From Candidatus Tayloriibacteriota bacterium (GTDB lineage Bacteria > Patescibacteriota > Minisyncoccia > Phycocordibacterales > PALSA-1337): 64,000 nt of DNA. The notes beneath the pieces are model-generated. The model made no database searches, was not told the origin of the DNA, and worked only from the letters and a program-made list of their open reading frames with translations. Position numbers and translations under genes: made by a program. The first letter of the stretch is position 1. Every line of letters begins with the position of its first letter. This document shows positions 4,078 through 52,199 of the stretch, in pieces. The stretch spans positions 155,787 through 219,786 of the forward strand of contig JACRJP010000004.1 of assembly GCA_016215455.1 (NCBI GenBank). Direction: 5' to 3'.

Positions 4078-4090
4078 GAACAACATCATC

Positions 4091-5251
4091 CTAGTGATGA
4101 TGTTGGTGTCCATCAATAGCAGCCAGCTCTGCTTTAATGTTTTGTTCTGAATTTTCTTCCGAATGAGGATTTTTCTTTACGAGCATTACTACAGAAATAT
4201 AGGTAGTAATAGGTACTGCCAAAACAAGTCCGATACTACCAACAAGAGTACGAACTATTTCAGTTGAAAATATTTCTTTATTAAGTGTTAAAGCAACAGG
4301 TGCATTTGAAGCAAAAAATAAGAGGAGAAGAGGTAGTGATGCACCGACGTATGCAATAGCGAGTGTATTTACAAGTGCACCAATATGTTCCCTTCCCATA
4401 CGAAGAGCTCGACGATAGATTTTTGTTCGAGATATATGTGGACCAAGAGCATGTAACTCCTCCACCGATACTGCTTGTCCGATTGCAACATCATATAGAA
4501 CCCCAAGAAGACCGATCATAATTCCACCAAAAAGAAGTCCTGTAAAATTAAGTGAACCTCCTGTGCTCATATTGAGATAGATTGCTTCGTCAGATTCAAA
4601 TCCACTTAAATGCGTTCCTAAAACTGCAAAATATCCGAATACACCAGTAACAATAACAGTTAAAATCATACCAACAACAGCAGACGATGTTGTACGATTC
4701 CATCCATGAGTAACATACGAGCCGACCACTATAATAAGTGATGAGACAAAAATACTCATGAGAACTGGTTGATACCCATGAAGAATTCCGGGCAACAATA
4801 CTCCAAGAATCAATACTAGACTTCCCAAAAGACTCACTAATCCGCGTACCCCCTGCATTCCACCAAAAATAATTACAAGAATTATAAATATAACTCCAAG
4901 AGCTATAAGAAAATTGAGACGATATGGATCTTGAACCGAATAAAGCTTCGCTCCGTCCTCAGTTCGTGTTGTTTCAAGAAGGAATATCTTATCACCCGCA
5001 GACAATCGCATATAATCATTCGATACTGAAATTTGCTTACCGCGCTCCAAACCTTCTGTTATCTCAACAGTCAAAGTTTGCTGTAATCCTTTCAGTCCTA
5101 GACCTGGTGTTATCGACTCAACCTCTGAATCAATACTCACTACACGAGCAACATATGACTTTTCAGTATCGTGTATGATTTCAGCACCAAATGTAATATT
5201 CGGGATAAGACATAGTAGGCCGATAAGACTCGCATATACGAATTTATTCAT
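4091..5251 (-). CDS. YibE/F family membrane protein
   Basis: Start taken at MNKFVYASLIG (ATG at 5251), which gives a signal peptide and avoids overlap with the upstream pilin gene. Polytopic; the YibE/F assignment is from memory of that family's consensus. Confidence 0.5.
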   Translation of the reverse strand: MNKFVYASLIGLLCLIPNITFGAEIIHDTEKSYVARVVSIDSEVESITPGLGLKGLQQTLTVEITEGLERGKQISVSNDYMRLSAGDKIFLLETTRTEDGAKLYSVQDPYRLNFLIALGVIFIILVIIFGGMQGVRGLVSLLGSLVLILGVLLPGILHGYQPVLMSIFVSSLIIVVGSYVTHGWNRTTSSAVVGMILTVIVTGVFGYFAVLGTHLSGFESDEAIYLNMSTGGSLNFTGLLFGGIMIGLLGVLYDVAIGQAVSVEELHALGPHISRTKIYRRALRMGREHIGALVNTLAIAYVGASLPLLLLFFASNAPVALTLNKEIFSTEIVRTLVGSIGLVLAVPITTYISVVMLVKKNPHSEENSEQNIKAELAAIDGHQHHH

Positions 5252-5288
5252 CCTGCTATTATAGTACAGACGAGAAACAAAGCCACAT

Positions 5289-5741
5289 CTATCGAACAGC
5301 AGTAATAGAAGGATTAATTTCTCCCGTTGAACTTGCAGTAATACGCCCACGAGAATCCTGGTAGATAACGTATCCCGTATCATAGTCTGTTGTCGTTGCG
5401 AAATGAGCACCCGGTAAACTTGGATCAAACGGTACAACCGAAATATAGTCAGGTACGATACATGTAGCAAGATCAAACCCTCCTGGGAATTTTATTGGCG
5501 TTGATGTCGATGGCAACATCGTCTGATTTCCTCTACAAACTAGTATTCCTTGATTCTCAGACATATTCTGACTAACCGCATTTACAATTGCACTCACATT
5601 ACTCATACGCTGTGCATCTCGTGCAAGCTTAAACTGTCGAGCAGGATTCACAGCAACAAGAGCGACAGATGACAGGATTGCAATAATACCAATCACAATA
5701 AGAACTTCGAGCAAAGTAAAACCTCTTTTTTTATTTTTCAT
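5289..5741 (-). CDS. Type IV pilin / pseudopilin (prepilin-type N-terminal cleavage/methylation domain)
   Basis: N-terminus MKNKKRGFTLLEVLIVIGIIAIL carries the class III signal-peptide motif G-F-T-L-L-E. Confidence 0.65.
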   Translation of the reverse strand: MKNKKRGFTLLEVLIVIGIIAILSSVALVAVNPARQFKLARDAQRMSNVSAIVNAVSQNMSENQGILVCRGNQTMLPSTSTPIKFPGGFDLATCIVPDYISVVPFDPSLPGAHFATTTDYDTGYVIYQDSRGRITASSTGEINPSITAVR

Positions 5742-5822
5742 CGACGTACATAATTACTAATAATACGAATGTAGTATCTCAAACTATGCATGAAATTCTC
5801 ATAAAGAAGTGATAATTTTTTA

Positions 5823-6200
5823 CTAAAAGATTCGTCTCAAAATACCCGTTATCTCATCGAGTCTATAATTAATAACGGTTGTTGATGCATATAACGAAGA
5901 AAACACTTCGATCTTAATCGAACCATTTTGTAGATATAGAGGTGTACTAGAAAGAATTCGACAAGTATCCATCAAAACGGTCGAAGTACTGACATATGAT
6001 CTCCCTGCAATAGCTCGCAAAGCTATCTCCGTACACGAGATGAGTTTTTGCTCAACAGTAAATTTTTCATACATATATACAGACCTCTCGTAATATTCAT
6101 GTACCAAAGCTGTAGCATACAGTCCCAAGCAAATAATTGTAGTATTAGTAGTAATAAGAACACACCACGCAATAAATCCTTGAGATCTTTTTATATTCAT
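5823..6200 (-). CDS. Hypothetical pilus-operon protein, degenerate pilin-like N-terminus
   Basis: N-terminus SQGFIAWCVLI lacks the Glu at +5. The gene sits in the pilus operon and overlaps the upstream ORF stop in an ATGA arrangement. Confidence 0.35.
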   Translation of the reverse strand: MNIKRSQGFIAWCVLITTNTTIICLGLYATALVHEYYERSVYMYEKFTVEQKLISCTEIALRAIAGRSYVSTSTVLMDTCRILSSTPLYLQNGSIKIEVFSSLYASTTVINYRLDEITGILRRIF

Positions 6201-6334
6201 AGAGAAGTTTCAATATGATGAATAACCCTCCACATCCCCTTCCCGATCTGCATCGTAGAGGATAGTAACACCACACTAATAAGCATAGTGAGTCCAATAT
6301 AGACAATACACTCAATGAGAACGTTTCCTTTCAT
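6197..6334 (-). CDS. Small pseudopilin-like protein (45 aa), absent from the ORF track
   Basis: Manual translation: MKGNVLIECIVYIGLTMLISVVLLSSTMQIGKGMWRVIHHIETSL. Prepilin-like motif G-N-V-L-I-E. Starts 5 nt after the upstream stop and overlaps the downstream start. Confidence 0.3.
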   Translation of the reverse strand: MKGNVLIECIVYIGLTMLISVVLLSSTMQIGKGMWRVIHHIETSL

Positions 6335-6339
6335 AATTA

Positions 6340-7692
6340 TTATCGAGTGATCATAACTACACTTTGCTGTCCAAGTATCGCAAGAGAATTATCTGTACAC
6401 ATCATTGATTTTGGTTTTTCATTAAGAGCAAGGATACCGACAGGTAGAATACTTTTTGTGTAATCTTCTACACGACCAAGATACGAGATACCTCCTCCGA
6501 TAACAGCTAATATTGTCGTACCCGATGAAACTACTCCATATATGCCACTTCCAATATCAGTACTTGTCGCGAGTTTTATTGATCCATTAGTACGATTCAT
6601 CACAAACAATTCATGATTTGTGACTATATTAAAACCTCCTACAGTCCTCCCTAATGTAAGTAGTCGTGGCAAGATATTAATTCTTTTACCCTCTTGAACA
6701 GATGCACCAGTAGGAGTAAAACTCCATACTCGACTTAGAGTAGATTCTTGTACTCGATATTCAGCAAATTGTGGGTCAGATGAGAGTGCAACAAAAATAG
6801 AATAACCATCCAATGCAATATCTTGTACCATTGAATTCGTTTCAGCGGTAAAAGAATTCTTTGGATGTAACGGATCTGATACATCAATCATCTGTAATTC
6901 GGAACCATTCCATTTCTCAGTTCCCATATAAATAATACCGTTTTGATATGCTAAAACTGATGGATCTGGAGGACTTGTTGTTGCTGTCGGTAGAGGAAGT
7001 TTAAATTCTTGTACCACAACAGGGTGTTCAGGAGATTGCAGATCAATAATTTGCAACTGAGAGGCAACGGATGTGTTTCCAGCATAAAGATATCGACCTG
7101 AAGCTACTAAAGTAGAGATTCCTGGACCGGTCGTTAGTGTTGCAACTACATGTAATGTAGGGACCATATCAATCACATAAATGTCAGGATCACTCAATGT
7201 TGCAGTATCGTTTGATACAATTAAATACCTATCATACGGAACGATTGCAGTAAGATTTGCAGAAGGAATTGTAATAGCATCTTTTTGTATAAAACCCACT
7301 GAAGTCCCTGTCATCACGCCGCACCAAGCATTATTCTGAACATCACCGTAACGAGAAAAAACTCTTTCTCCTTGAACCATTTCTGAGCCCTGTAGACCAG
7401 TAACAGAAACATGCACCTTGCTTGTAACACGATCAATGTCGGTAAATATTGTCGTATTAATAGTCGCTGATGTTGTCGCCACAAGTGGAGTAGGATCTTT
7501 TCCAACAATATCTTCATACTTTGTATATTGACCAAGTATTGTTGTGAGTTGTTGTACATGTAGATTTCTTCTCGTATCACGCTCAACAGTTTGCGTAAGG
7601 TGCACATACCATGTATATCCAACAGCTATATATACGGTACCTACCGCACATACAACCATAACTTCAATGAGGCTATATCCTTTTTGAAACAT
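6340..7692 (-). CDS. Large pilin-like protein (prepilin N-terminus) with beta-propeller-like repeats
   Basis: N-terminus MFQKGYSLIEVMVV (G-Y-S-L-I-E). Repeated segments such as YLYAGNTSVASQLQIIDL, GIIYMGTEKWNGSELQMIDV and GYSIFVALSSDPQFAEYRV resemble LVIVD / propeller blades. Confidence 0.5.
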   Translation of the reverse strand: MFQKGYSLIEVMVVCAVGTVYIAVGYTWYVHLTQTVERDTRRNLHVQQLTTILGQYTKYEDIVGKDPTPLVATTSATINTTIFTDIDRVTSKVHVSVTGLQGSEMVQGERVFSRYGDVQNNAWCGVMTGTSVGFIQKDAITIPSANLTAIVPYDRYLIVSNDTATLSDPDIYVIDMVPTLHVVATLTTGPGISTLVASGRYLYAGNTSVASQLQIIDLQSPEHPVVVQEFKLPLPTATTSPPDPSVLAYQNGIIYMGTEKWNGSELQMIDVSDPLHPKNSFTAETNSMVQDIALDGYSIFVALSSDPQFAEYRVQESTLSRVWSFTPTGASVQEGKRINILPRLLTLGRTVGGFNIVTNHELFVMNRTNGSIKLATSTDIGSGIYGVVSSGTTILAVIGGGISYLGRVEDYTKSILPVGILALNEKPKSMMCTDNSLAILGQQSVVMITR

Positions 7693-7695
7693 ACG

Positions 7696-8829
7696 TTATG
7701 GAGTTGTACTAATATTTGAAGTAACTGAATATAAAGGCAACATGAAAGCAAGAGCGACGAGTGCGACAACACAACCTAACAACAGCATGACGAGTGGTTC
7801 AGCAAGCTTAAGTACAATATTTATTTTCTTTGTAAGTTGCTCTGATGCCCTGTCCGCAATTCGTCCACACATTTGAGGTAGCATTCCTCCTCGTTCGCCT
7901 ATAAGAATAAGTTCACCAGCTTCTGGAATAAAGAGAAATTTGAACTGCCGCACAATATCAGAGAATGTCTTACCCCGCGATGTTTGTTCTATAGCTTCAG
8001 TGAGCATTACCACATATTGTTTCTGTGAAGTCATTACTTGAGCATTTTTGAGGGCATTATCAATCCGCGCGTCTGTCTCAAGAAAGATAGCGAGGGTACG
8101 AAATATGAGTATAGTATTTTTTAACACTATCAGATGACGAAATTCAGGAATTTTAAATATAACCCTATCCACAATATGTCGTATTTTTGTATGTCGCATA
8201 AAAAACACACTACACACCAATATAAGAACCGCACCAAAAATTCCCATATACCAAAACCGCTGAATTCCCCCGACGATGAAAATCAATATTCGTGTCAAAA
8301 GAGGTAAGGTAATCTTCATACCAATAAGCACAGGTAATATCTTGGGAAAGATATACAACACCAAAAAGCCGATCAACGAACCCATAGCGACAATGAGGAT
8401 ACATGGATATAAAGAAGCCATGAGTATACTCTGGCGTATCTTTTTCTGTTCAGATATATATTGTGCAGTCAGTGACAATATATCTTGCACAGAACCATGT
8501 ACCTCCCCCACCTGAAGCATCGCAAGTGTCACAGGATGAATTTTAGGAAATACTCTTTGAAGAGACTCAGAGAAAGTGTGTCCAGCTTCAATGGAATGAA
8601 CACATTGAACGATCTCTTTATTGTATGGATGCTTATCATACATCACAACAAGAAGCCTCATTGCGTCGGTGAGAGTTGGAGTACACTGTAATAAATCCAC
8701 TAATCGTGGAATACATATATTCTCGAAGAATTGACTTTGTCGTCTTTTAGAATAACTCTCTACCAAACACTCGATCGACTTCTTCAATGGTAGTGTAACC
8801 TTCTGTAATAAGTTTTTTAGCTTTTTCAT
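7696..8829 (-). CDS. pilC: Type II secretion / type IV pilus platform protein, GspF/PilC family
   Basis: Two GspF domains, e.g. SIEAGHTFSESLQRVFPKIHPVTLAMLQVGEVHGSVQDIL. The ORF is open up to 8916. The start was chosen at MKKLKNLLQK and is uncertain; it overlaps the pilB 3' end by about 80 nt. Confidence 0.75.
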   Translation of the reverse strand: MKKLKNLLQKVTLPLKKSIECLVESYSKRRQSQFFENICIPRLVDLLQCTPTLTDAMRLLVVMYDKHPYNKEIVQCVHSIEAGHTFSESLQRVFPKIHPVTLAMLQVGEVHGSVQDILSLTAQYISEQKKIRQSILMASLYPCILIVAMGSLIGFLVLYIFPKILPVLIGMKITLPLLTRILIFIVGGIQRFWYMGIFGAVLILVCSVFFMRHTKIRHIVDRVIFKIPEFRHLIVLKNTILIFRTLAIFLETDARIDNALKNAQVMTSQKQYVVMLTEAIEQTSRGKTFSDIVRQFKFLFIPEAGELILIGERGGMLPQMCGRIADRASEQLTKKINIVLKLAEPLVMLLLGCVVALVALAFMLPLYSVTSNISTTP

Positions 8830-9874
8830 AGAGAGTAAGATTACCTTGGCTATACTGCAACTTACGGAGCAGTTTTGGTTGTAATGAGGTACGTAGATGC
8901 TGTTGAACTTTTTCATCTATAGCAAGAATCTCATACACCCCTATTCGACCGTTGTATCCAGTCAAAAAGCATTCTGCACAACCACGAGCATTACATGCAC
9001 CACACTTCTTACGAACAAGTCTCTGAGAAATTAAAAGGGTCACCGCCGAAGCAATCAATGAAGTCTCAAGACCGAGATCCTGCAAACGAACACAGCCCTG
9101 AACACAATCTTTTGCATGAAGTGACGACACAACAAGATGTCCTGTTAATGCCGCATTCATTACAACAACAGCAGTTTCTTTATCACGCATTTCTCCTACC
9201 ATGATAACGTCTGGGTCCTGACGTAAGAGGGCTCTCAATCCCTGAGCAAACGTGATATTTTGTCGAGGAGAAACTTGAACCTGTCGAATTCCTTCTAACT
9301 CTGACTCAACAGGATCTTCGATAGTTACAAGCACCCGTGCTTGGCTATATAGATGCCGCAGAAAAGTATACAGAGTTGTTGTCTTTCCTGAGCCTGTTGG
9401 CCCTACAACACAAATACACCCTTGAGGTTGAGCTAGTGCATTCCGAATTTTCTTTGCCTCTTCTGAAGTACATCCGAGTTCCTCAAGAGAAAGTTCAGTG
9501 TTGTTATTCTTAAGAATTCGCACAACACAATTTTCTCCATGATACGTAGGCATAATCGATATGCGCAAATCAACTATGGAATTATCACTGAACTCATAGT
9601 GGATACGTCCATCATGCATGTGCATGTGTTCATCAGTTCGAATACCCGCCAATACTTTAAACCGAGCGATAATTTCTCTATGCGGACATTTAAAATTAGT
9701 AAGTGTTCCTCCAAGAATTCCATTCTTACGGAAACTCACATAAGTACCTCCGCGATGATAATCAATATGAATATCTGAAACTCCAGACATCACAGCATAT
9801 TTCACCAGACCCTCGACCAAAGTTGGTGCAGAATATACCAATACAAGTTCAGATATATCATTTTGATATGTCAT
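8747..9874 (-). CDS. pilB: Type IV pilus assembly ATPase, GspE/PilB family (short form)
   Basis: Walker A VGPTGSGKTTT, a Walker B / Asp box, and a C-terminal tetracysteine CGAC...CAEC. Confidence 0.85.
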   Translation of the reverse strand: MTYQNDISELVLVYSAPTLVEGLVKYAVMSGVSDIHIDYHRGGTYVSFRKNGILGGTLTNFKCPHREIIARFKVLAGIRTDEHMHMHDGRIHYEFSDNSIVDLRISIMPTYHGENCVVRILKNNNTELSLEELGCTSEEAKKIRNALAQPQGCICVVGPTGSGKTTTLYTFLRHLYSQARVLVTIEDPVESELEGIRQVQVSPRQNITFAQGLRALLRQDPDVIMVGEMRDKETAVVVMNAALTGHLVVSSLHAKDCVQGCVRLQDLGLETSLIASAVTLLISQRLVRKKCGACNARGCAECFLTGYNGRIGVYEILAIDEKVQQHLRTSLQPKLLRKLQYSQGNLTLYEKAKKLITEGYTTIEEVDRVFGRELF

Positions 9875-10035: not shown

Positions 10036-10827
10036 ATGGAAACACCTCCCACTCTGGCATCTCTTTTGGGTCCAATCTCCCATGAAATTTCATTTTGTAT
10101 CGTGGGTGGTCCACCAGCAGGTGGTGGATCTCTTCGAGGTGAATTGGTTGCTGGGGCCTGTCGAGACCTTCATGGAAACTTGTTGATCGGTGTCGACTTC
10201 ATCGACATCAGGCCACACATCATCGAACCTCACGTTCGTGATCAAACACCTCTTGGGCTTGAGTTTCTTGCCCACATGGCCAAACAAAAAAACGGGGGTC
10301 TTCAACCGGATACCCCTATCGCCAAAGGGCTCGCAGGCAAAATCATTGAACATCACGAAAAAGGAGTTCGACAGATTGTCTTGCGTGGATACCCACGTAA
10401 CACATTTCAGGCAGGAGAGTTGATCAGCGTTGGTGCGCCAATCAAGACGGTGTTGTTTCAACGAGATCTTGAAGAGTGCAAACGCAACTTCAACAATCCT
10501 TCTCGTCGTGCGGCAAGTCGGGATGATGACGCTGTGGTTCAACAATTGGTCGGGAGATTCGAAAACACATGGCTCAAGGAGACTCTCCCAGCACTAAGGA
10601 AACTGCGCCGGCACGCTCTTAGTCGAGATGGCTCGACTTATCACGAACGGAAAACTCCACCGACGGGACCTGATCTAGCAGCTGACATTCTGTTTCTGCT
10701 CCAACATGGACTGACAATGAGCACCGAAACACTCATTCAAATAATCGCCAATCTGGCGAATAACGAACATCCTGCTGGTCAAAAATTACGACTCTGCACG
10801 GAAGAAGATCGCCGACGGACACTATAA
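10036..10827 (+). CDS. Adenylate kinase (NMP kinase) family homolog with degenerate P-loop (GC-rich island)
   Basis: The P-loop reads IVGGPPAGGGS in place of GxPGxGKGT, so the Lys is missing. VLRGYPRNTFQAGEL matches the adenylate kinase segment LLDGFPRTxxQAxAL. RDDDAVVQQLVGRFEN resembles the LID / C-terminal region. GC is about 52%. Confidence 0.45.
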   Translation: METPPTLASLLGPISHEISFCIVGGPPAGGGSLRGELVAGACRDLHGNLLIGVDFIDIRPHIIEPHVRDQTPLGLEFLAHMAKQKNGGLQPDTPIAKGLAGKIIEHHEKGVRQIVLRGYPRNTFQAGELISVGAPIKTVLFQRDLEECKRNFNNPSRRAASRDDDAVVQQLVGRFENTWLKETLPALRKLRRHALSRDGSTYHERKTPPTGPDLAADILFLLQHGLTMSTETLIQIIANLANNEHPAGQKLRLCTEEDRRRTL

Positions 10828-10997: not shown

Positions 10998-11894
10998 ATG
11001 CCTAAGAAAAAATCCAACAAAGAAGAGAAACCGAATTCTCTTTTACTCGTCGCACTATTCCTCCTAATTGGAATCGTGCTCATATGTATACCTTTCATTG
11101 GAAATCTTTTGGGACCAACACCTCCCCGCCCACTAACAGCGTCAGAAATTCACGAAAAAGCTCTAGGCTTGGGATTGATCGGTGCTCCCCCGCACATTGA
11201 AGAACGTCACGTCTCCATCAGCAGTCATTCTCACGCATACGGCAGGAATGGAGACATTCCCGTCCATATCGTATCTCGCACCAATTCGACAGAATCATGG
11301 AAATTGGTAGGAACAGGAACCCTCCTCGGTAAATACACAAACCACGTGCTTACTGCCTACCATGTATTCGAGGATCATGCGGGACAATATGGGTATCGAC
11401 ACATCGGTCCCAACGAGTTTACTGGGAATGAGAAAGTCGTTCCCATCATCTCAGTCAAGGACGATGAAGGAAAAGGAAGCGATGTTGTTATTAGTATATC
11501 TGATCCAACTCGTAGTGAATTTCCGGTATTGACTGTGCCCCGCTCAAATAGCATTCCTAATGGATTTGATGCCGATCAGACCTATATGATCGACACGATT
11601 CAACGGGACATATCGTTCTCCACCTACCCTCATCGAAGCATTAGCACGTTCGTAAAGACAAAAATGACTGAGGCGGGTGCAAATTATGTCTTCATTAACT
11701 GGGTAGCAATGCCAGCTGAGAGTGGAACGTCAGCAATACTTGAAGGTGAGGATTCAAACAGTTATGTAGTCATCATTCGAGGGCAAGCCTTGCCTAAAGA
11801 ATTTTACGACAAACTTTCAGAAGAGGTTCAGCAAACCCTGTCATGGACACCAGAAAAGATGTATGCGGTAGGTAACTTCATTCGCATCGATTAA
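10998..11894 (+). CDS. Membrane-anchored trypsin-like (S1) serine protease-like protein
   Basis: N-terminal TM helix. Candidate catalytic triad context: His in LTAYHV, Asp in GSDVVISI, Ser in AMPAESGTSA (GDSGGP-like). Confidence 0.35.
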   Translation: MPKKKSNKEEKPNSLLLVALFLLIGIVLICIPFIGNLLGPTPPRPLTASEIHEKALGLGLIGAPPHIEERHVSISSHSHAYGRNGDIPVHIVSRTNSTESWKLVGTGTLLGKYTNHVLTAYHVFEDHAGQYGYRHIGPNEFTGNEKVVPIISVKDDEGKGSDVVISISDPTRSEFPVLTVPRSNSIPNGFDADQTYMIDTIQRDISFSTYPHRSISTFVKTKMTEAGANYVFINWVAMPAESGTSAILEGEDSNSYVVIIRGQALPKEFYDKLSEEVQQTLSWTPEKMYAVGNFIRID

Positions 11895-43413: not shown

Positions 43414-45582
43414 CTAAAGAACAGTCTCTGACGAAGTTGCAACTTCCTCCACAGTTGATACAGGCTCAGGAGTTGGGGTTACTTCTTCAATTGTTGTTAC
43501 AGGAGCTGGAATTACTTCCTCAGTAGTTGTTGCAGGGGTTTCAGACGACACTTCAGGTTTTACCAACTCAACTAAAGTAGTAGTACCAACATCTATTGCT
43601 ACAGGTGTCGTTGTAGATGTATCTGGTATGACGACAATTTCTGGAGTAGCCACAGTGTTACTTACAACATTTGCGCTGCCGCACTGTCCCATTCTCTTAA
43701 ACCAATCACCGTTACGGATAGTAAAACAGTATGTATCTCCTGTTGCTTCATCTTTCATTTCAATACCACCAGCTGACAAACTCTTAGTTGTAACATTATT
43801 ACTTATTACCTTATCAACTTCTATCGTAGAAGTTGCTGTATACGTCATATGACCCTTAAGAAAATCTATCTGTGACTGGAGTTCCTGCATCCCCTTTACA
43901 ATATATGGAATAACTTGAGCATACAGAACTGATTTAATTCCACTAGCATCTGTTCTCACGAGTTCAGGAAACACTCGTTCAACATCCTGAGCCAAGAAAC
44001 CAACCTGTTGATCAGAATCAGGATTTGATTTCCAATTAAAATACACTGATCGTAATGTGAGAAGTTTACCTAACGATGATTTTGGTAGTTCTGTTATATT
44101 CGTTTTGAGATTTTCATCAGATGTACATGAGAAACCTGTACCAGCAACAACAGTACACTGAGTACCTCCTGACCCTTCAAAACGTGCCACGTTGGTCGTT
44201 GTGGTTGTTGAAACATGAAGGCGATATAAAGGAGACGCTATTCCAATACCCAAACTTCCACGAGCTGCAGAAGTACCTTCATCAACATAGTCTGAATACA
44301 AGACATTACCGATATTCATACCATTCGATCGATTAGTAAATCCTGTACCCGCACCAATTAAAATATTATTTGATCCAGTTGTAAGATTGTTACCTGCACT
44401 AGAACCAATTACCACATTACTACTTCCTGTATTAATATCGTCCGCAGCAGAAGAACCGATGACAACATTGTACCCACCGGAAGAAATATACTCTCCCGAT
44501 TCACTACCGATGGCCACGTTTCCTTTTCCTGAAGTCAGACGAGTTAGTGCCTGATATCCAATAGCAGTAGAATTGTAATTATACCCAGACCCTATACCAG
44601 CCATTGCTTCATACCCTATTGCCACCGAATAATTACCTGATCCACTTTCGAGATTATTTGCTGCGTATGATCCTACAAATACCGCACTATTAGGTACATA
44701 TGTCTGGCTTGTATTATTACTATATATGTTATCACCAATCAAAACACTATAACCATTACCGCTGTCGAGATACGGTGCCACATTATCTCCTACCAAAGTC
44801 ATACCATACATACTACTAGTAATAGAACCTAACCCTGTCCTTCCTATTAAGGTTACATCTTGTTCTGGAAAAACTCGAAAAACAGGACTTGATGAAGCAG
44901 TTATAAAGCTTCCATTTGTTAACTCTAATCTTCCACTGACCGTTGTTGTTCCAACAACAGCTAGAGCTGATACAGGTGAAGTTGTTCCTATACCCAAAAA
45001 CCCAGTCACTGTTACATCATCTGAGAATGAAGTATCTCCAGAAAACGAAGCTCCTGTTACAGAAGGACTTGCGATTGTTGAATTAGAAATTGTAGCACCG
45101 CTGATGTTTGATACGTTTGCAGTAATTGCCTGACTTATCGAACGACGATCTGAATCATTCTGTCGTGTTTGATGAGCTCGTAATGCAGTAAGTTCGTTTC
45201 GAAACTGTTGCATCGCCATAGCATCAACCGTATTAAATACTTGCGTAATTGGTGATACGTAAATTGGTTTTTCTATTTCCCGTACTAACGTCTCACGAAT
45301 CACAGTTGTTGTAGCGTATAACACAGGAGAGGTAGACGAAGCTGTACTTGTCGCACTTAAATCACTCAATATCGCTTGAGATGTCTGTAGAGCACTAACG
45401 GTATTTGCTACAGAAGCAGCAGATCCTTCTGACAATACATTACGTACAACACCGAATATAGATGTGATTTTTTTACCAAGATCTTCAAATGAAAAAGCAT
45501 GGGTAACGGATGGTACAAGACACACGACCATTGCAATAGCTACAACTCGACGTATCAACTTTGTATTATTAAATATTCTCAT
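43414..45582 (-). CDS. Secreted tail-fibre-like surface protein: Hep_Hag-like Gly-rich repeats plus Peptidase_S74 intramolecular chaperone domain plus Thr/Pro-rich tail
   Basis: Signal peptide MRIFNNTKLIRRVVAIAMVVCLVPSVTHA. Repeats such as NVVIGSSAADDINTGSSNVVIGSSAGNNLTTGSNNILIGAGTG. S74-like segment SDENLKTNITELPKSSLGKLLTLRSVYFNWKSNPDSDQQVGFLAQDVERVFPELV. Confidence 0.55.
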   Translation of the reverse strand: MRIFNNTKLIRRVVAIAMVVCLVPSVTHAFSFEDLGKKITSIFGVVRNVLSEGSAASVANTVSALQTSQAILSDLSATSTASSTSPVLYATTTVIRETLVREIEKPIYVSPITQVFNTVDAMAMQQFRNELTALRAHQTRQNDSDRRSISQAITANVSNISGATISNSTIASPSVTGASFSGDTSFSDDVTVTGFLGIGTTSPVSALAVVGTTTVSGRLELTNGSFITASSSPVFRVFPEQDVTLIGRTGLGSITSSMYGMTLVGDNVAPYLDSGNGYSVLIGDNIYSNNTSQTYVPNSAVFVGSYAANNLESGSGNYSVAIGYEAMAGIGSGYNYNSTAIGYQALTRLTSGKGNVAIGSESGEYISSGGYNVVIGSSAADDINTGSSNVVIGSSAGNNLTTGSNNILIGAGTGFTNRSNGMNIGNVLYSDYVDEGTSAARGSLGIGIASPLYRLHVSTTTTTNVARFEGSGGTQCTVVAGTGFSCTSDENLKTNITELPKSSLGKLLTLRSVYFNWKSNPDSDQQVGFLAQDVERVFPELVRTDASGIKSVLYAQVIPYIVKGMQELQSQIDFLKGHMTYTATSTIEVDKVISNNVTTKSLSAGGIEMKDEATGDTYCFTIRNGDWFKRMGQCGSANVVSNTVATPEIVVIPDTSTTTPVAIDVGTTTLVELVKPEVSSETPATTTEEVIPAPVTTIEEVTPTPEPVSTVEEVATSSETVL

Positions 45583-51638: not shown

Positions 51639-52199
51639 CTACTGCACAATAACTGTCATTAAATTATTACTGAATCCAGGGCACTGCTGCGATGTAATTT
51701 TTCCATCAGTGTTATATGCATATAGGATATTAAGACCTGGACAAACTCTTCCTCCTTGCGGAGAACTCATCCACCAACAATTATTTCCTGTACCTGTACC
51801 AGGAGCACCAACTGGTGGTCCCTTATCTGATGTCGTATCACAGTAAGCGAAACCGTAATAACGCCATACTGTTGGACCTGCCTCATTACTCACTGGATCA
51901 ACCGGTACCTTAGACATATATTTTGGAACCAGAGCACTTATAAAACTAGCAGTCCAATCACCAGCTACCGCTGCTGAATATGCCCCGAGAGGAGGATATG
52001 CTCCATTATTATCCGATTGATATAAAGCGATAGCATTTCTAATCTGAGTCAGATGCTGTATTCGTAATGCATCTCGAGAACGAGCACGAGCCTGTGTTAG
52101 TGATGCAAGTACTACTGATGACAAAAGACCGATTATTGAAATAACAACAAGAAGTTCTATTAATGTAAAGCCCGCACTTTTCCGAGTTTGTATTTTCAT
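51639..52199 (-). CDS. Type IV pilin (PilA-like; candidate major pilin)
   Basis: KSAGFTLIELLVVISIIGLLSSVVL is a canonical prepilin motif and hydrophobic helix. The C-terminal region has Cys residues. Confidence 0.7.
   Translation of the reverse strand: MKIQTRKSAGFTLIELLVVISIIGLLSSVVLASLTQARARSRDALRIQHLTQIRNAIALYQSDNNGAYPPLGAYSAAVAGDWTASFISALVPKYMSKVPVDPVSNEAGPTVWRYYGFAYCDTTSDKGPPVGAPGTGTGNNCWWMSSPQGGRVCPGLNILYAYNTDGKITSQQCPGFSNNLMTVIVQ

Follow-up and report, generated by a model that had tools for sequence, protein, structure and literature searches.

A conserved gene cassette of Paceibacteria encodes a candidate minimal type IV filament machine with a propeller-bearing pilin

We analysed a 64,000-nucleotide (nt) stretch of DNA, hereafter the window (positions 155,787 to 219,786 of contig JACRJP010000004.1, assembly GCA_016215455.1, from a Candidatus Tayloriibacteriota bacterium), and in particular a cassette of putative type IV filament genes that it carries. 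Seven open reading frames (ORFs) of the same direction lie head to tail on the minus strand (Table 1), all of them at the positions reported in an initial annotation of the window. That annotation had also described several ATGA overlaps or gaps of 3–5 nt between the genes. Three of the six junctions are indeed tight, but there is a single ATGA overlap, and the pilB/pilC junction between the ATPase and platform genes is not a tight one. Specifically, the pilC ORF (7696–8916) extends over the 3′ end of pilB, and the interval from the pilB stop to the conserved N-terminus of PilC offers no canonical start codon. A comparison with 38 aligned homologues and with the related locus L047, whose platform is 54% identical, favours ATG 8829 as the pilC start, which would give a protein of 377 amino acids (aa) and an 83-nt overlap with pilB, while GTG 8700 and ATG 8661, the gene caller's pick, are possible alternatives.

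Table 1. Features of the cassette and its downstream edge. The junction is that with the next gene downstream; identities are those of the window protein to its counterpart in locus L047 and the median over distant loci; a slash marks the predicted prepilin cleavage site.
Feature	Position	Strand	Junction	Identity to L047 (%)	Median identity, distant loci (%)	Description
Gene order	4091–9874	-				ATPase, platform, 450-aa pilin, 45-aa mini-pilin, 125-aa, 150-aa pilin, YibE/F
GspE/PilB-family extension ATPase, 375 aa	8747–9874	-		76	43	Pfam T2SSE; first cassette gene in 38 related loci
PilC/GspF platform	7696–8829	-	3-nt gap	54	27	Pfam T2SSF; start uncertain, ORF reaches 8916 (406-aa ORF)
Big minor pilin, 450 aa	6340–7692	-	5-nt gap	53	35	Leader MFQKG/YSLIE, alpha1 helix, Thr/Ser-rich linker ~58–122, 7-bladed LVIVD-type propeller ~125–450
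Mini-pilin, 45 aa (mature ~42 aa)	6197–6334	-	ATGA overlap	64	44	Leader MKG/NVLIE, essentially alpha1 helix plus short tail
125-aa pilin-like protein	5823–6200	-	81-nt gap	51	21	N-terminus ...SQG/FIAWC, no Glu5, candidate tip cap
Canonical type IV pilin, 150 aa	5289–5741	-	37-nt gap	88	57	Leader MKNKKRG/FTLLE; presumed major subunit
YibE/F-family membrane protein, 386 aa	4091–5251	-				Pfam YibE_F, E=4e-67
Terminator-like hairpin	4081–4105	-				10-bp stem, 4 G-C, T-rich tail; overlaps YibE/F stop

The largest pilin-like protein of the cassette couples a prepilin N-terminus to a beta-propeller. Residues 5–10 of the 450-aa product read G-Y-S-L-I-E, the motif on which the initial annotation had based its assignment, and the N-terminus MFQKG/YSLIEVMVV fits the family consensus GF(L)xxEIM. 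Glycine at position −1, phenylalanine at +1 and glutamate at +5 (G-F-x3-E), preceded by a short basic leader, are recognisable in 35 of 43 orthologues. In an AlphaFold2 model built from a 22-sequence alignment (mean predicted local distance difference test score, pLDDT, 76.6; predicted template-modelling score, pTM, 0.71), residues 6–57 form a 52-residue N-terminal helix, which is the length of a pilin alpha1. Residues 44–122 are Thr/Ser-rich, reach a pLDDT of only 31–47 with two weak strands, and are mostly missing in other family members. The remainder (residues 135–449) is modelled as 28 strands arranged in seven four-stranded blades with a pLDDT of about 85–94, so that the propeller proposed in the initial annotation is borne out by structure prediction (seven blades, pLDDT ~90). 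Consistent with the model, the best Foldseek matches in the PDB are seven-bladed WD40/G-beta propellers (expectation value, E, of ~1e-9; TM-score at most 0.74 on the target).

The window protein itself has no match to Pfam LVIVD at E≤1. Of the 22 aligned family members, 18 match LVIVD (PF08309; lowest E 3.8e-13) and 5 match Beta_propel; together with the model, these matches place the family, by prediction, among the LVIVD-repeat beta-propeller proteins. The protein also has both elements by which Raynaud et al. (2021) define modular pilins, namely a prepilin motif and a non-pilus domain. Two cysteines are conserved in the family, C432 without exception and C124 in 90% or more of its members, and they may clasp the propeller. 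Homology to PilY1 was considered and rejected: there is no Pfam match (PF05567/IPR008707), and PilY1 is absent from the top 50 Foldseek matches. The label 'PilY1-like' given earlier to the architecture therefore holds as an analogy only.

A profile search with the big pilin returned 28,325 proteins at E≤1e-3, of which 2,474 lie at E≤1e-30. With thousands of related proteins, the pilin-propeller architecture is common rather than exceptional, and the description of the protein as unusual stands locally but not for the family. We surveyed the N-termini of the best 150 of the 28,325 matches, for which 148 sequences were retrieved, 114 of them of at most 620 aa. Among these 114, prepilin-like N-termini with glutamate at position 5 (Glu5) are found in 41 and with aspartate (Asp5) in 49, and the remainder mostly look like gene calls truncated at the N-terminus; other top matches are giant LVIVD surface proteins. 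The Asp5 form reads G-[FLIV]-I-L-[IM]-D in the more distant pilin-propeller proteins (e.g. P0039–P0076). Glu5 is near-invariant in type IV pilins, and aspartate at this position is unusual. In most homologues the propeller follows the helix almost directly, indicating that it replaces the pilin head instead of being added to one.

The gene after the big pilin encodes a product of 45 aa in which residues 3–8 form the motif G-N-V-L-I-E. As the initial annotation had anticipated, the ORF has been missed: on the public contigs with this locus, the gene calls do not include it. We nevertheless take it, on sequence grounds, to be a genuine gene. An identical copy is present in locus L048, and the orthologue in L047 has the same length and is 64% identical, compared with 53% for the big pilin there. 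The window and L047 copies differ by pN 0.25 and pS 0.77 (synonymous sites saturated), pointing to purifying selection. Furthermore, when the 928 window ORFs were scored with a hidden Markov model (HMM) of the mini-pilin family built without the window lineage, 6197–6334 came out on top (E=1.2e-5). For the wider family, the consensus is MNKGFTLIEtIiYISLLSILMxGVFSS...DYELLIxNFHE, with a mature length of ~51 aa, and G-1, E5 and Y9 are invariant across the aligned small copies. Of 43 loci, 38 hold a prepilin ORF in the slot after the big pilin, a small one (~55 aa) in 34 cases. In NCBIfam, the mini-pilins best match ComGE, ComGF and ComGD; for the window product this is a weak match to ComGE (E=0.0064). 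More than 100 database clusters of mini-pilins of 53–60 aa exist, many of them annotated as 'prepilin-type N-terminal cleavage/methylation domain-containing protein' or 'PulG'. The term 'unannotated' is thus right for this short, divergent copy but not for the ~55-aa mini-pilins elsewhere.

Variants of the mini-pilin slot hint at its origin and function. In two Doudnabacteria-type loci (L035 and L039), the slot is occupied by a normal-sized minor pilin of 148 aa with weak ComGF/PilV similarity, which suggests that the mini-pilin arose by truncation. In two independent metagenome-assembled genomes (MAGs; L037:1905-2447 and L038:8099-8722), the mini-pilin and the 125-aa protein are fused in one ORF of 180–207 aa, which suggests that the two proteins work together. 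The fused product would hold two tandem prepilin-like hydrophobic segments. In L040 and L041 (both 7794-7952) and in L043 (7707-7898), the slot reads M-L-I-E-L, with no glycine before L-I-E; these relatives of the window lineage share its YibE/F neighbour, and their mini-pilin may be leaderless, starting at the methionine, or may have an unusual leader.

The 125-aa protein is distinguished by the lack of Glu5. In all 37 of its orthologues, G-F-[IV]-[AS]-[LFI] comes after a short basic leader, and none of them has glutamate at position 5. An HMM of the main family, from which the window lineage was excluded, found nothing in the window. A profile–profile comparison (hhalign) of the window lineage with the main family, extending over 95 columns, gave a probability of 96.3% and E=1.6e-9 and brought both conserved cysteines into register. 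The protein has no match in Pfam, NCBIfam or the PDB sequences, and neither sequence nor Foldseek comparison relates it to GspK, ComGG or solved pilins. Its AlphaFold2 model (56 sequences, mean pLDDT 72.7) shows a helix (residues 3–64) and a four-stranded antiparallel sheet, the predicted 'lollipop' topology of a pilin. On its N-terminal motif and modelled topology, we consider it the fourth pilin-like protein of the cassette.

The 150-aa protein is a canonical type IV pilin. It scores 36.5 bits with Pfam N_methyl (cut-off 21.2) and 33.2 bits with TIGR02532, also over the cut-off, and its best NCBIfam match is GspH. It is the best-conserved protein of the cassette (Table 1), and the ranking of the six proteins would fit a constrained shaft combined with a fast-diverging, ligand- or host-specific tip.

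The two remaining cassette proteins are an extension ATPase and its platform, for which the Pfam families named in the initial annotation were recovered. The ATPase matches T2SSE (PF00437) over residues 19–368 with E=1.7e-102, and the platform matches T2SSF (PF00482) in two stretches with E=4.9e-37. The ATPase contains a Walker A motif (GPTGSGKT), a Walker B motif (DPDVIMVGEMRD), a His box and a CxxC-x5-CxxC tetracysteine motif. Its NCBIfam scores are 364 bits for GspE (cut-off 630), 346 for PilB (cut-off 676) and 228 for ComGA (cut-off 300); the PilT-family score of only 147 bits identifies it as an extension-type rather than a retraction-type ATPase. It aligns with the GspE model from position 112 onward, indicating, with its length of 375 aa, that the N-terminal N1 domain is absent, and it covers positions 3–266 of the 267 of the ComGA model. 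The platform scores 179 bits with GspF (cut-off 424; model positions 67–401 of 401) and 114 with ComGB (cut-off 240). For both proteins the NCBIfam ranking is led by GspE/GspF, followed by PilB/HofC and ComGA/ComGB. Since both fall far under every equivalog cut-off, they are members of no curated subfamily.

With each species represented by one genome, a scan yielded 44 loci, and the homologues are without exception from MAGs of Patescibacteria (Paceibacteria, Taylorbacteria, Nomurabacteria and Doudnabacteria); in addition, an identical 450-aa protein is encoded on a 62-kb assembly of run SRR12113407. The order pilB, then pilC and the big pilin, is found in 38 of the 44 loci, the gene of ~125 aa comes after the mini-pilin slot in 37, and the 150-aa pilin is adjacent in 26 of 43. 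Synteny of the first five genes, from the ATPase to the 125-aa pilin, extends over ~40 Patescibacteria genomes at species level, with the big pilin always at the head of the pilin block. The commonest junctions in the related loci are a 4-nt overlap between the big pilin and the mini-pilin and an 8-nt overlap between the mini-pilin and the 125-aa gene, and 70–100 nt usually separate the major pilin from the gene preceding it. The recurrence of the same gene order in more than 40 species-level genomes is far beyond chance.

To place the cassette among known machines, we compared it with the component sets and model cut-offs of each class. Pfam annotation of the window covered the gene calls of the public contig (~1–32.9 kb) and ten ORFs of 41–64 kb; around the 44 related loci, the flanking genes were grouped by similarity only, and we inspected ten representative sequences by eye. 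The ATPase, the two-domain platform and the class III prepilin N-termini are those of the type IV filament superfamily; the remaining component of that set, a prepilin peptidase, is not found within this coverage. The cassette does not qualify as a type IVa pilus, given the absence of PilM/N/O and PilT from the same coverage and the low PilB score. The cut-offs of the Com pilus HMMs are missed not only by the ATPase and platform but also by the pilins (ComGC 16 bits against 75; ComGE 16.6–25 against 49). Likewise, type II secretion is not indicated, because the GspE and GspF cut-offs are missed, no Gsp pseudopilin HMM is passed, and none of GspC, GspD, GspL and GspM is found among the Pfam-annotated genes near the cassette. 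ComEC, ComEA and DprA are absent from the Pfam-annotated genes around the cassette and from the recurrent, mostly unannotated gene clusters of the related loci, and no other gene is a recurrent companion of the cassette in the 44 loci.

The YibE/F gene, which the initial annotation counted as an operon member, adjoins the 150-aa pilin gene on the same strand but lies outside the conserved cassette. Its ORF spans 4091–5476, with the actual start at ATG 5251 and not at 5476. A YibE/F gene downstream of the pilin is found solely in the window lineage (L040, L041, L043 and, more closely related, L047 and L048), so the conserved unit has five or six genes and not seven, and YibE/F as a pilus component is rejected. 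In 18 other loci, its position is taken by a gene for a D-Ala-D-Ala-carboxypeptidase-like protein (~326 aa, with an SxxK motif recognised by eye, e.g. L004:9028-10005 and L019:9130-10119) that is absent from the window, and this neighbour may link the cassette to local cell-wall remodelling. The hairpin at the YibE/F stop is a consensus match that could mark the end of the transcription unit; a scan for promoters and terminators gave four terminator-like sites in the region against 3.3 in shuffled sequences, which is no excess, and we claim no promoter.

The rest of the Pfam-annotated part of the window contains one further pilus gene, an orphan pilin, and is otherwise housekeeping. The orphan (51639–52199, minus strand, 186 aa) is canonical, with the N-terminus MKIQTRKSAG/FTLIELLVV..., an N_methyl score of 33.2 bits and a GspG-like score of 45.9 bits, and it adjoins an RNase HII-like gene far from the cassette. 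Its presence suggests that the genome probably holds further pilus genes elsewhere. Five pilin-like N-termini had been counted in the operon; there are four, and the fifth is this orphan. A secreted protein of 722 aa is encoded at 43414–45582 (minus strand), with a Sec-type signal peptide, a Peptidase_S74 domain (endosialidase intramolecular chaperone; E=1.1e-14) and no prepilin N-terminus. Peptidase_S74 is typical of phage tail spikes and also occurs among the modules of modular pilins. Divergent from pilB on the plus strand lie two genes of 263 and 298 aa (10036–10827 and 10998–11894) with no Pfam match, in a region with a GC content of 0.45 compared with 0.38–0.39 around it; the 251-aa protein in the divergent position of L040 resembles a P-loop kinase by sequence.

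We interpret the locus, with fair but far from complete confidence, as a minimal type IV filament machine of an ultrasmall bacterium of the Paceibacteria that carries a propeller-bearing tip adhesin. In the proposed mechanism, a prepilin peptidase, assumed to be encoded elsewhere, would cleave the four prepilins after the conserved glycine. The three minor pilins, made in roughly equal amounts through translational coupling, would assemble on PilC into a priming complex, which the 125-aa subunit lacking Glu5 would cap, as GspK-type subunits do elsewhere. The ATPase would then polymerise the 150-aa major pilin beneath this complex, so that the propeller would be displayed at the filament tip, where, by analogy with PilX2 of TM7x, it would serve as an adhesin for a host cell or a surface ligand. 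As neither a retraction ATPase nor PilMNO is encoded alongside, it is probable that the filament is an attachment pilus, thin and without twitching motility. In its workings the system would resemble the minimal type IV filaments of monoderm bacteria, with a modular adhesin added at the tip.

The closest functional precedent is the thin T4P-2 pilus of Nanosynbacter lyticus TM7x (Saccharibacteria), which is likewise a Patescibacteria type IV pilus without a retraction ATPase of its own (PMC11623550). Deletion of its propeller-bearing minor pilin PilX2 halves host binding while filaments are still made (PMC11623550). The PilX2 propeller is described as consisting of RCC1 repeats, which sets it apart from the LVIVD-type propeller of the cassette, for which there is no RCC1 match in Pfam. 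Furthermore, T4P-2 has PilM2, PilN2 and PilO2 and keeps its pilins in a separate locus, whereas the cassette unites ATPase, platform and pilins in one block; no PilD signal peptide is predicted for PilX2 (PMC11623550), whereas the big-pilin family keeps G-F-x3-E; and no helix-only mini-pilin has been described in TM7x.

A second precedent is provided by the modular pilins, such as PilB with a vWA module and PilC with a lectin module in S. sanguinis, which share with the big pilin a prepilin motif and a bulky, presumably tip-exposed non-pilus domain (PMC8179133). In the modular pilins solved so far, the module is grafted onto a complete helix-plus-beta-sheet pilin, whereas here the propeller appears to replace the head. 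The InterPro signature IPR013211 is, we take it, the LVIVD repeat. An InterPro catalogue of 1,219 modular pilins includes ~30 proteins with an IPR012902-IPR013211 architecture, in one or more copies (PMC8179133 Dataset S1), which have never been examined and whose operon context is undescribed. PilY1/PilC of type IVa pili resembles the big pilin in placing a seven-bladed propeller with an adhesin role at the pilus tip together with minor pilins. PilY1, however, is not a pilin and docks on the minor-pilin complex via its propeller, whereas here the propeller is fused to the pilin helix.

Very short pilins that are essentially an alpha1 helix are known from Geobacter, where PilA-N (~61 aa) acts with PilA-C, and from the Flp pilins; in Geobacter, the gene directly downstream of PilA-N supplies the globular part. 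The mini-pilin differs from these pilins in being a minor subunit with a T4a-type short leader, and the 125-aa protein downstream of it has a prepilin-like helix of its own. In the type II secretion system (T2SS), as proposed here, a trio of minor pilins (GspK-GspI-GspJ) primes assembly, with one member lacking Glu5 and one bulky. More generally, tip complexes capped by a subunit without Glu5 prime assembly, and an ATPase and a platform constitute the minimal assembly complex (PMC10191384).

We found no description of this cassette in the literature on LVIVD domains in pilins and on pilins of Paceibacteria. There are earlier examples both of minor pilins with a propeller and of modular pilins, and the cassette overturns nothing. 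The combination of a head-less propeller pilin, a helix-only mini-pilin, a 125-aa orphan family without Glu5 and the absence of PilMNO and PilT in cis is not described in the literature searched.

Several observations weigh against the attachment-pilus interpretation. Neither a prepilin peptidase (PilD/ComC) nor PilT, PilM/N/O or a secretin was found in the annotated part of the window or in the clustered flanks of the related loci. The absence of any N_methyl or pilin match would have refuted the initial annotation for its two central pilins, and the copies in the window escape this only narrowly: with Pfam N_methyl the big pilin reaches 18.9 bits, short of the cut-off of 21.2, and the 45-aa product has no Pfam match at all and just the weak one to ComGE, although orthologues of both proteins pass (22.9–25.6 bits for the mini-pilins). 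The 125-aa model is of only moderate confidence and gives no significant pilin match in Foldseek (best E=0.11), so the pilin assignment of this protein is based on N-terminal motif, topology and gene context. In the T2SS, moreover, the bulky GspK is itself the cap without Glu5, whereas here the bulky pilin keeps Glu5 and the small 125-aa protein lacks it. About 15 related loci have no adjacent major pilin, so that the 150-aa pilin may work for another machine, either as well or exclusively. Finally, the architecture of the tip complex, its stoichiometry and its ligand are inferred.

Three other explanations were weighed, and each fits the evidence less well. The cassette might encode a Com-like DNA-uptake pilus, with which a nucleotide-auxotrophic cell belonging to the candidate phyla radiation (CPR) would bind DNA rather than a host at the filament tip. 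The Com pilus of monoderm bacteria is similar in several respects: both have an extension ATPase, a platform and, by assumption for the cassette, a peptidase acting in trans, both do without PilMNO, PilT and a secretin as far as the annotation here extends, and both are encoded in a single operon that begins with ATPase and platform. The ATPase is as short as ComGA and spans essentially the whole ComGA model, the mini-pilins find their best NCBIfam matches among the ComG proteins, and the 125-aa pilin presumably corresponds in size and position to ComGG of B. subtilis, which also lacks Glu5. The gene order differs, the major pilin being third in the Com operon and last here, and the minor pilins number four there and three here. 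All ComG equivalog cut-offs are missed widely, ATPase and platform score higher with GspE/PilB and GspF, and ComEC, ComEA and DprA do not appear among the annotated nearby genes or the recurrent clusters of the related loci. The Com pilus is known for DNA capture, and we know of no Com pilus that contains a beta-propeller. Mutants of the propeller-bearing T4P-2 of TM7x, furthermore, retain wild-type competence (PMC11623550). We regard a DNA-uptake pilus as improbable, while granting it more weight than the two explanations that follow.

According to one of these, the 450-aa protein would not be a filament subunit at all but a signal-anchored surface propeller or a PilY1-like accessory standing beside the machine. 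In its favour, the window copy stays under both the Pfam and the TIGRFAM prepilin thresholds, no pilin beta-sheet head is modelled between helix and propeller, and 49 of the 114 representatives of at most 620 aa among the best 150 matches have Asp5 instead of Glu5, and PilX2 of TM7x, with no predicted PilD signal peptide, offers a parallel (PMC11623550). We consider it quite unlikely, in view of the G(-1), F(+1) and E(+5) pattern and short basic leader in 35 of 43 orthologues, the modelled helix of alpha1 length, the invariable first place of the gene in a pilin block where it is translationally coupled to two other pilins, and the ~30 catalogued pilin-LVIVD proteins that pass the InterPro N_methyl signature (PMC8179133 Dataset S1). 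Slightly less probable still is a T2SS-like pseudopilus, a short piston that would drive proteins, or surface structures of the cell itself, across the wall, with the propeller protein as cargo adaptor. GspE and GspF are the best NCBIfam matches of ATPase and platform, GspH is that of the major pilin, and no retraction ATPase is present; on the other hand, every Gsp equivalog cut-off is missed, GspC, GspD, GspL and GspM are wanting among the annotated genes nearby, and nothing further recurs in the related loci. CPR cells, moreover, have no outer membrane to cross. The conserved prepilin N-terminus of the propeller protein argues that it is a filament subunit rather than cargo.

Within the interpretation of the cassette as an attachment pilus, a more specific and decidedly tentative proposal is that its minor pilins form a tip complex of an undescribed kind, in which a propeller would take over the entire globular head of the big pilin, the helix-only mini-pilin (42–51 aa when mature) would act solely as a coiled-coil adaptor and a small pilin without Glu5 would form the cap. 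With just an ATPase and a platform added, this would make up the minimal self-sufficient adhesive filament of type IV. At 42–51 aa, the T4a-type mini-pilin might then perhaps be among the smallest pilins known. If this proposal is true, the rapidly diverging propeller and cap would decide which host a Paceibacterium attaches to. The ATPase, the platform and four pilins, one of them helix-only, offer a natural minimal system for the study of tip-complex priming, and the soluble propeller (about residues 123–450) could be expressed and used to search for host ligands. Paceibacteria, of which hardly any have been cultivated, belong to the CPR lineages that are most abundant and least understood; a six-gene cassette with one obvious adhesin domain, conserved in 44 or more genomes at species level, is a concrete candidate for their attachment organelle.

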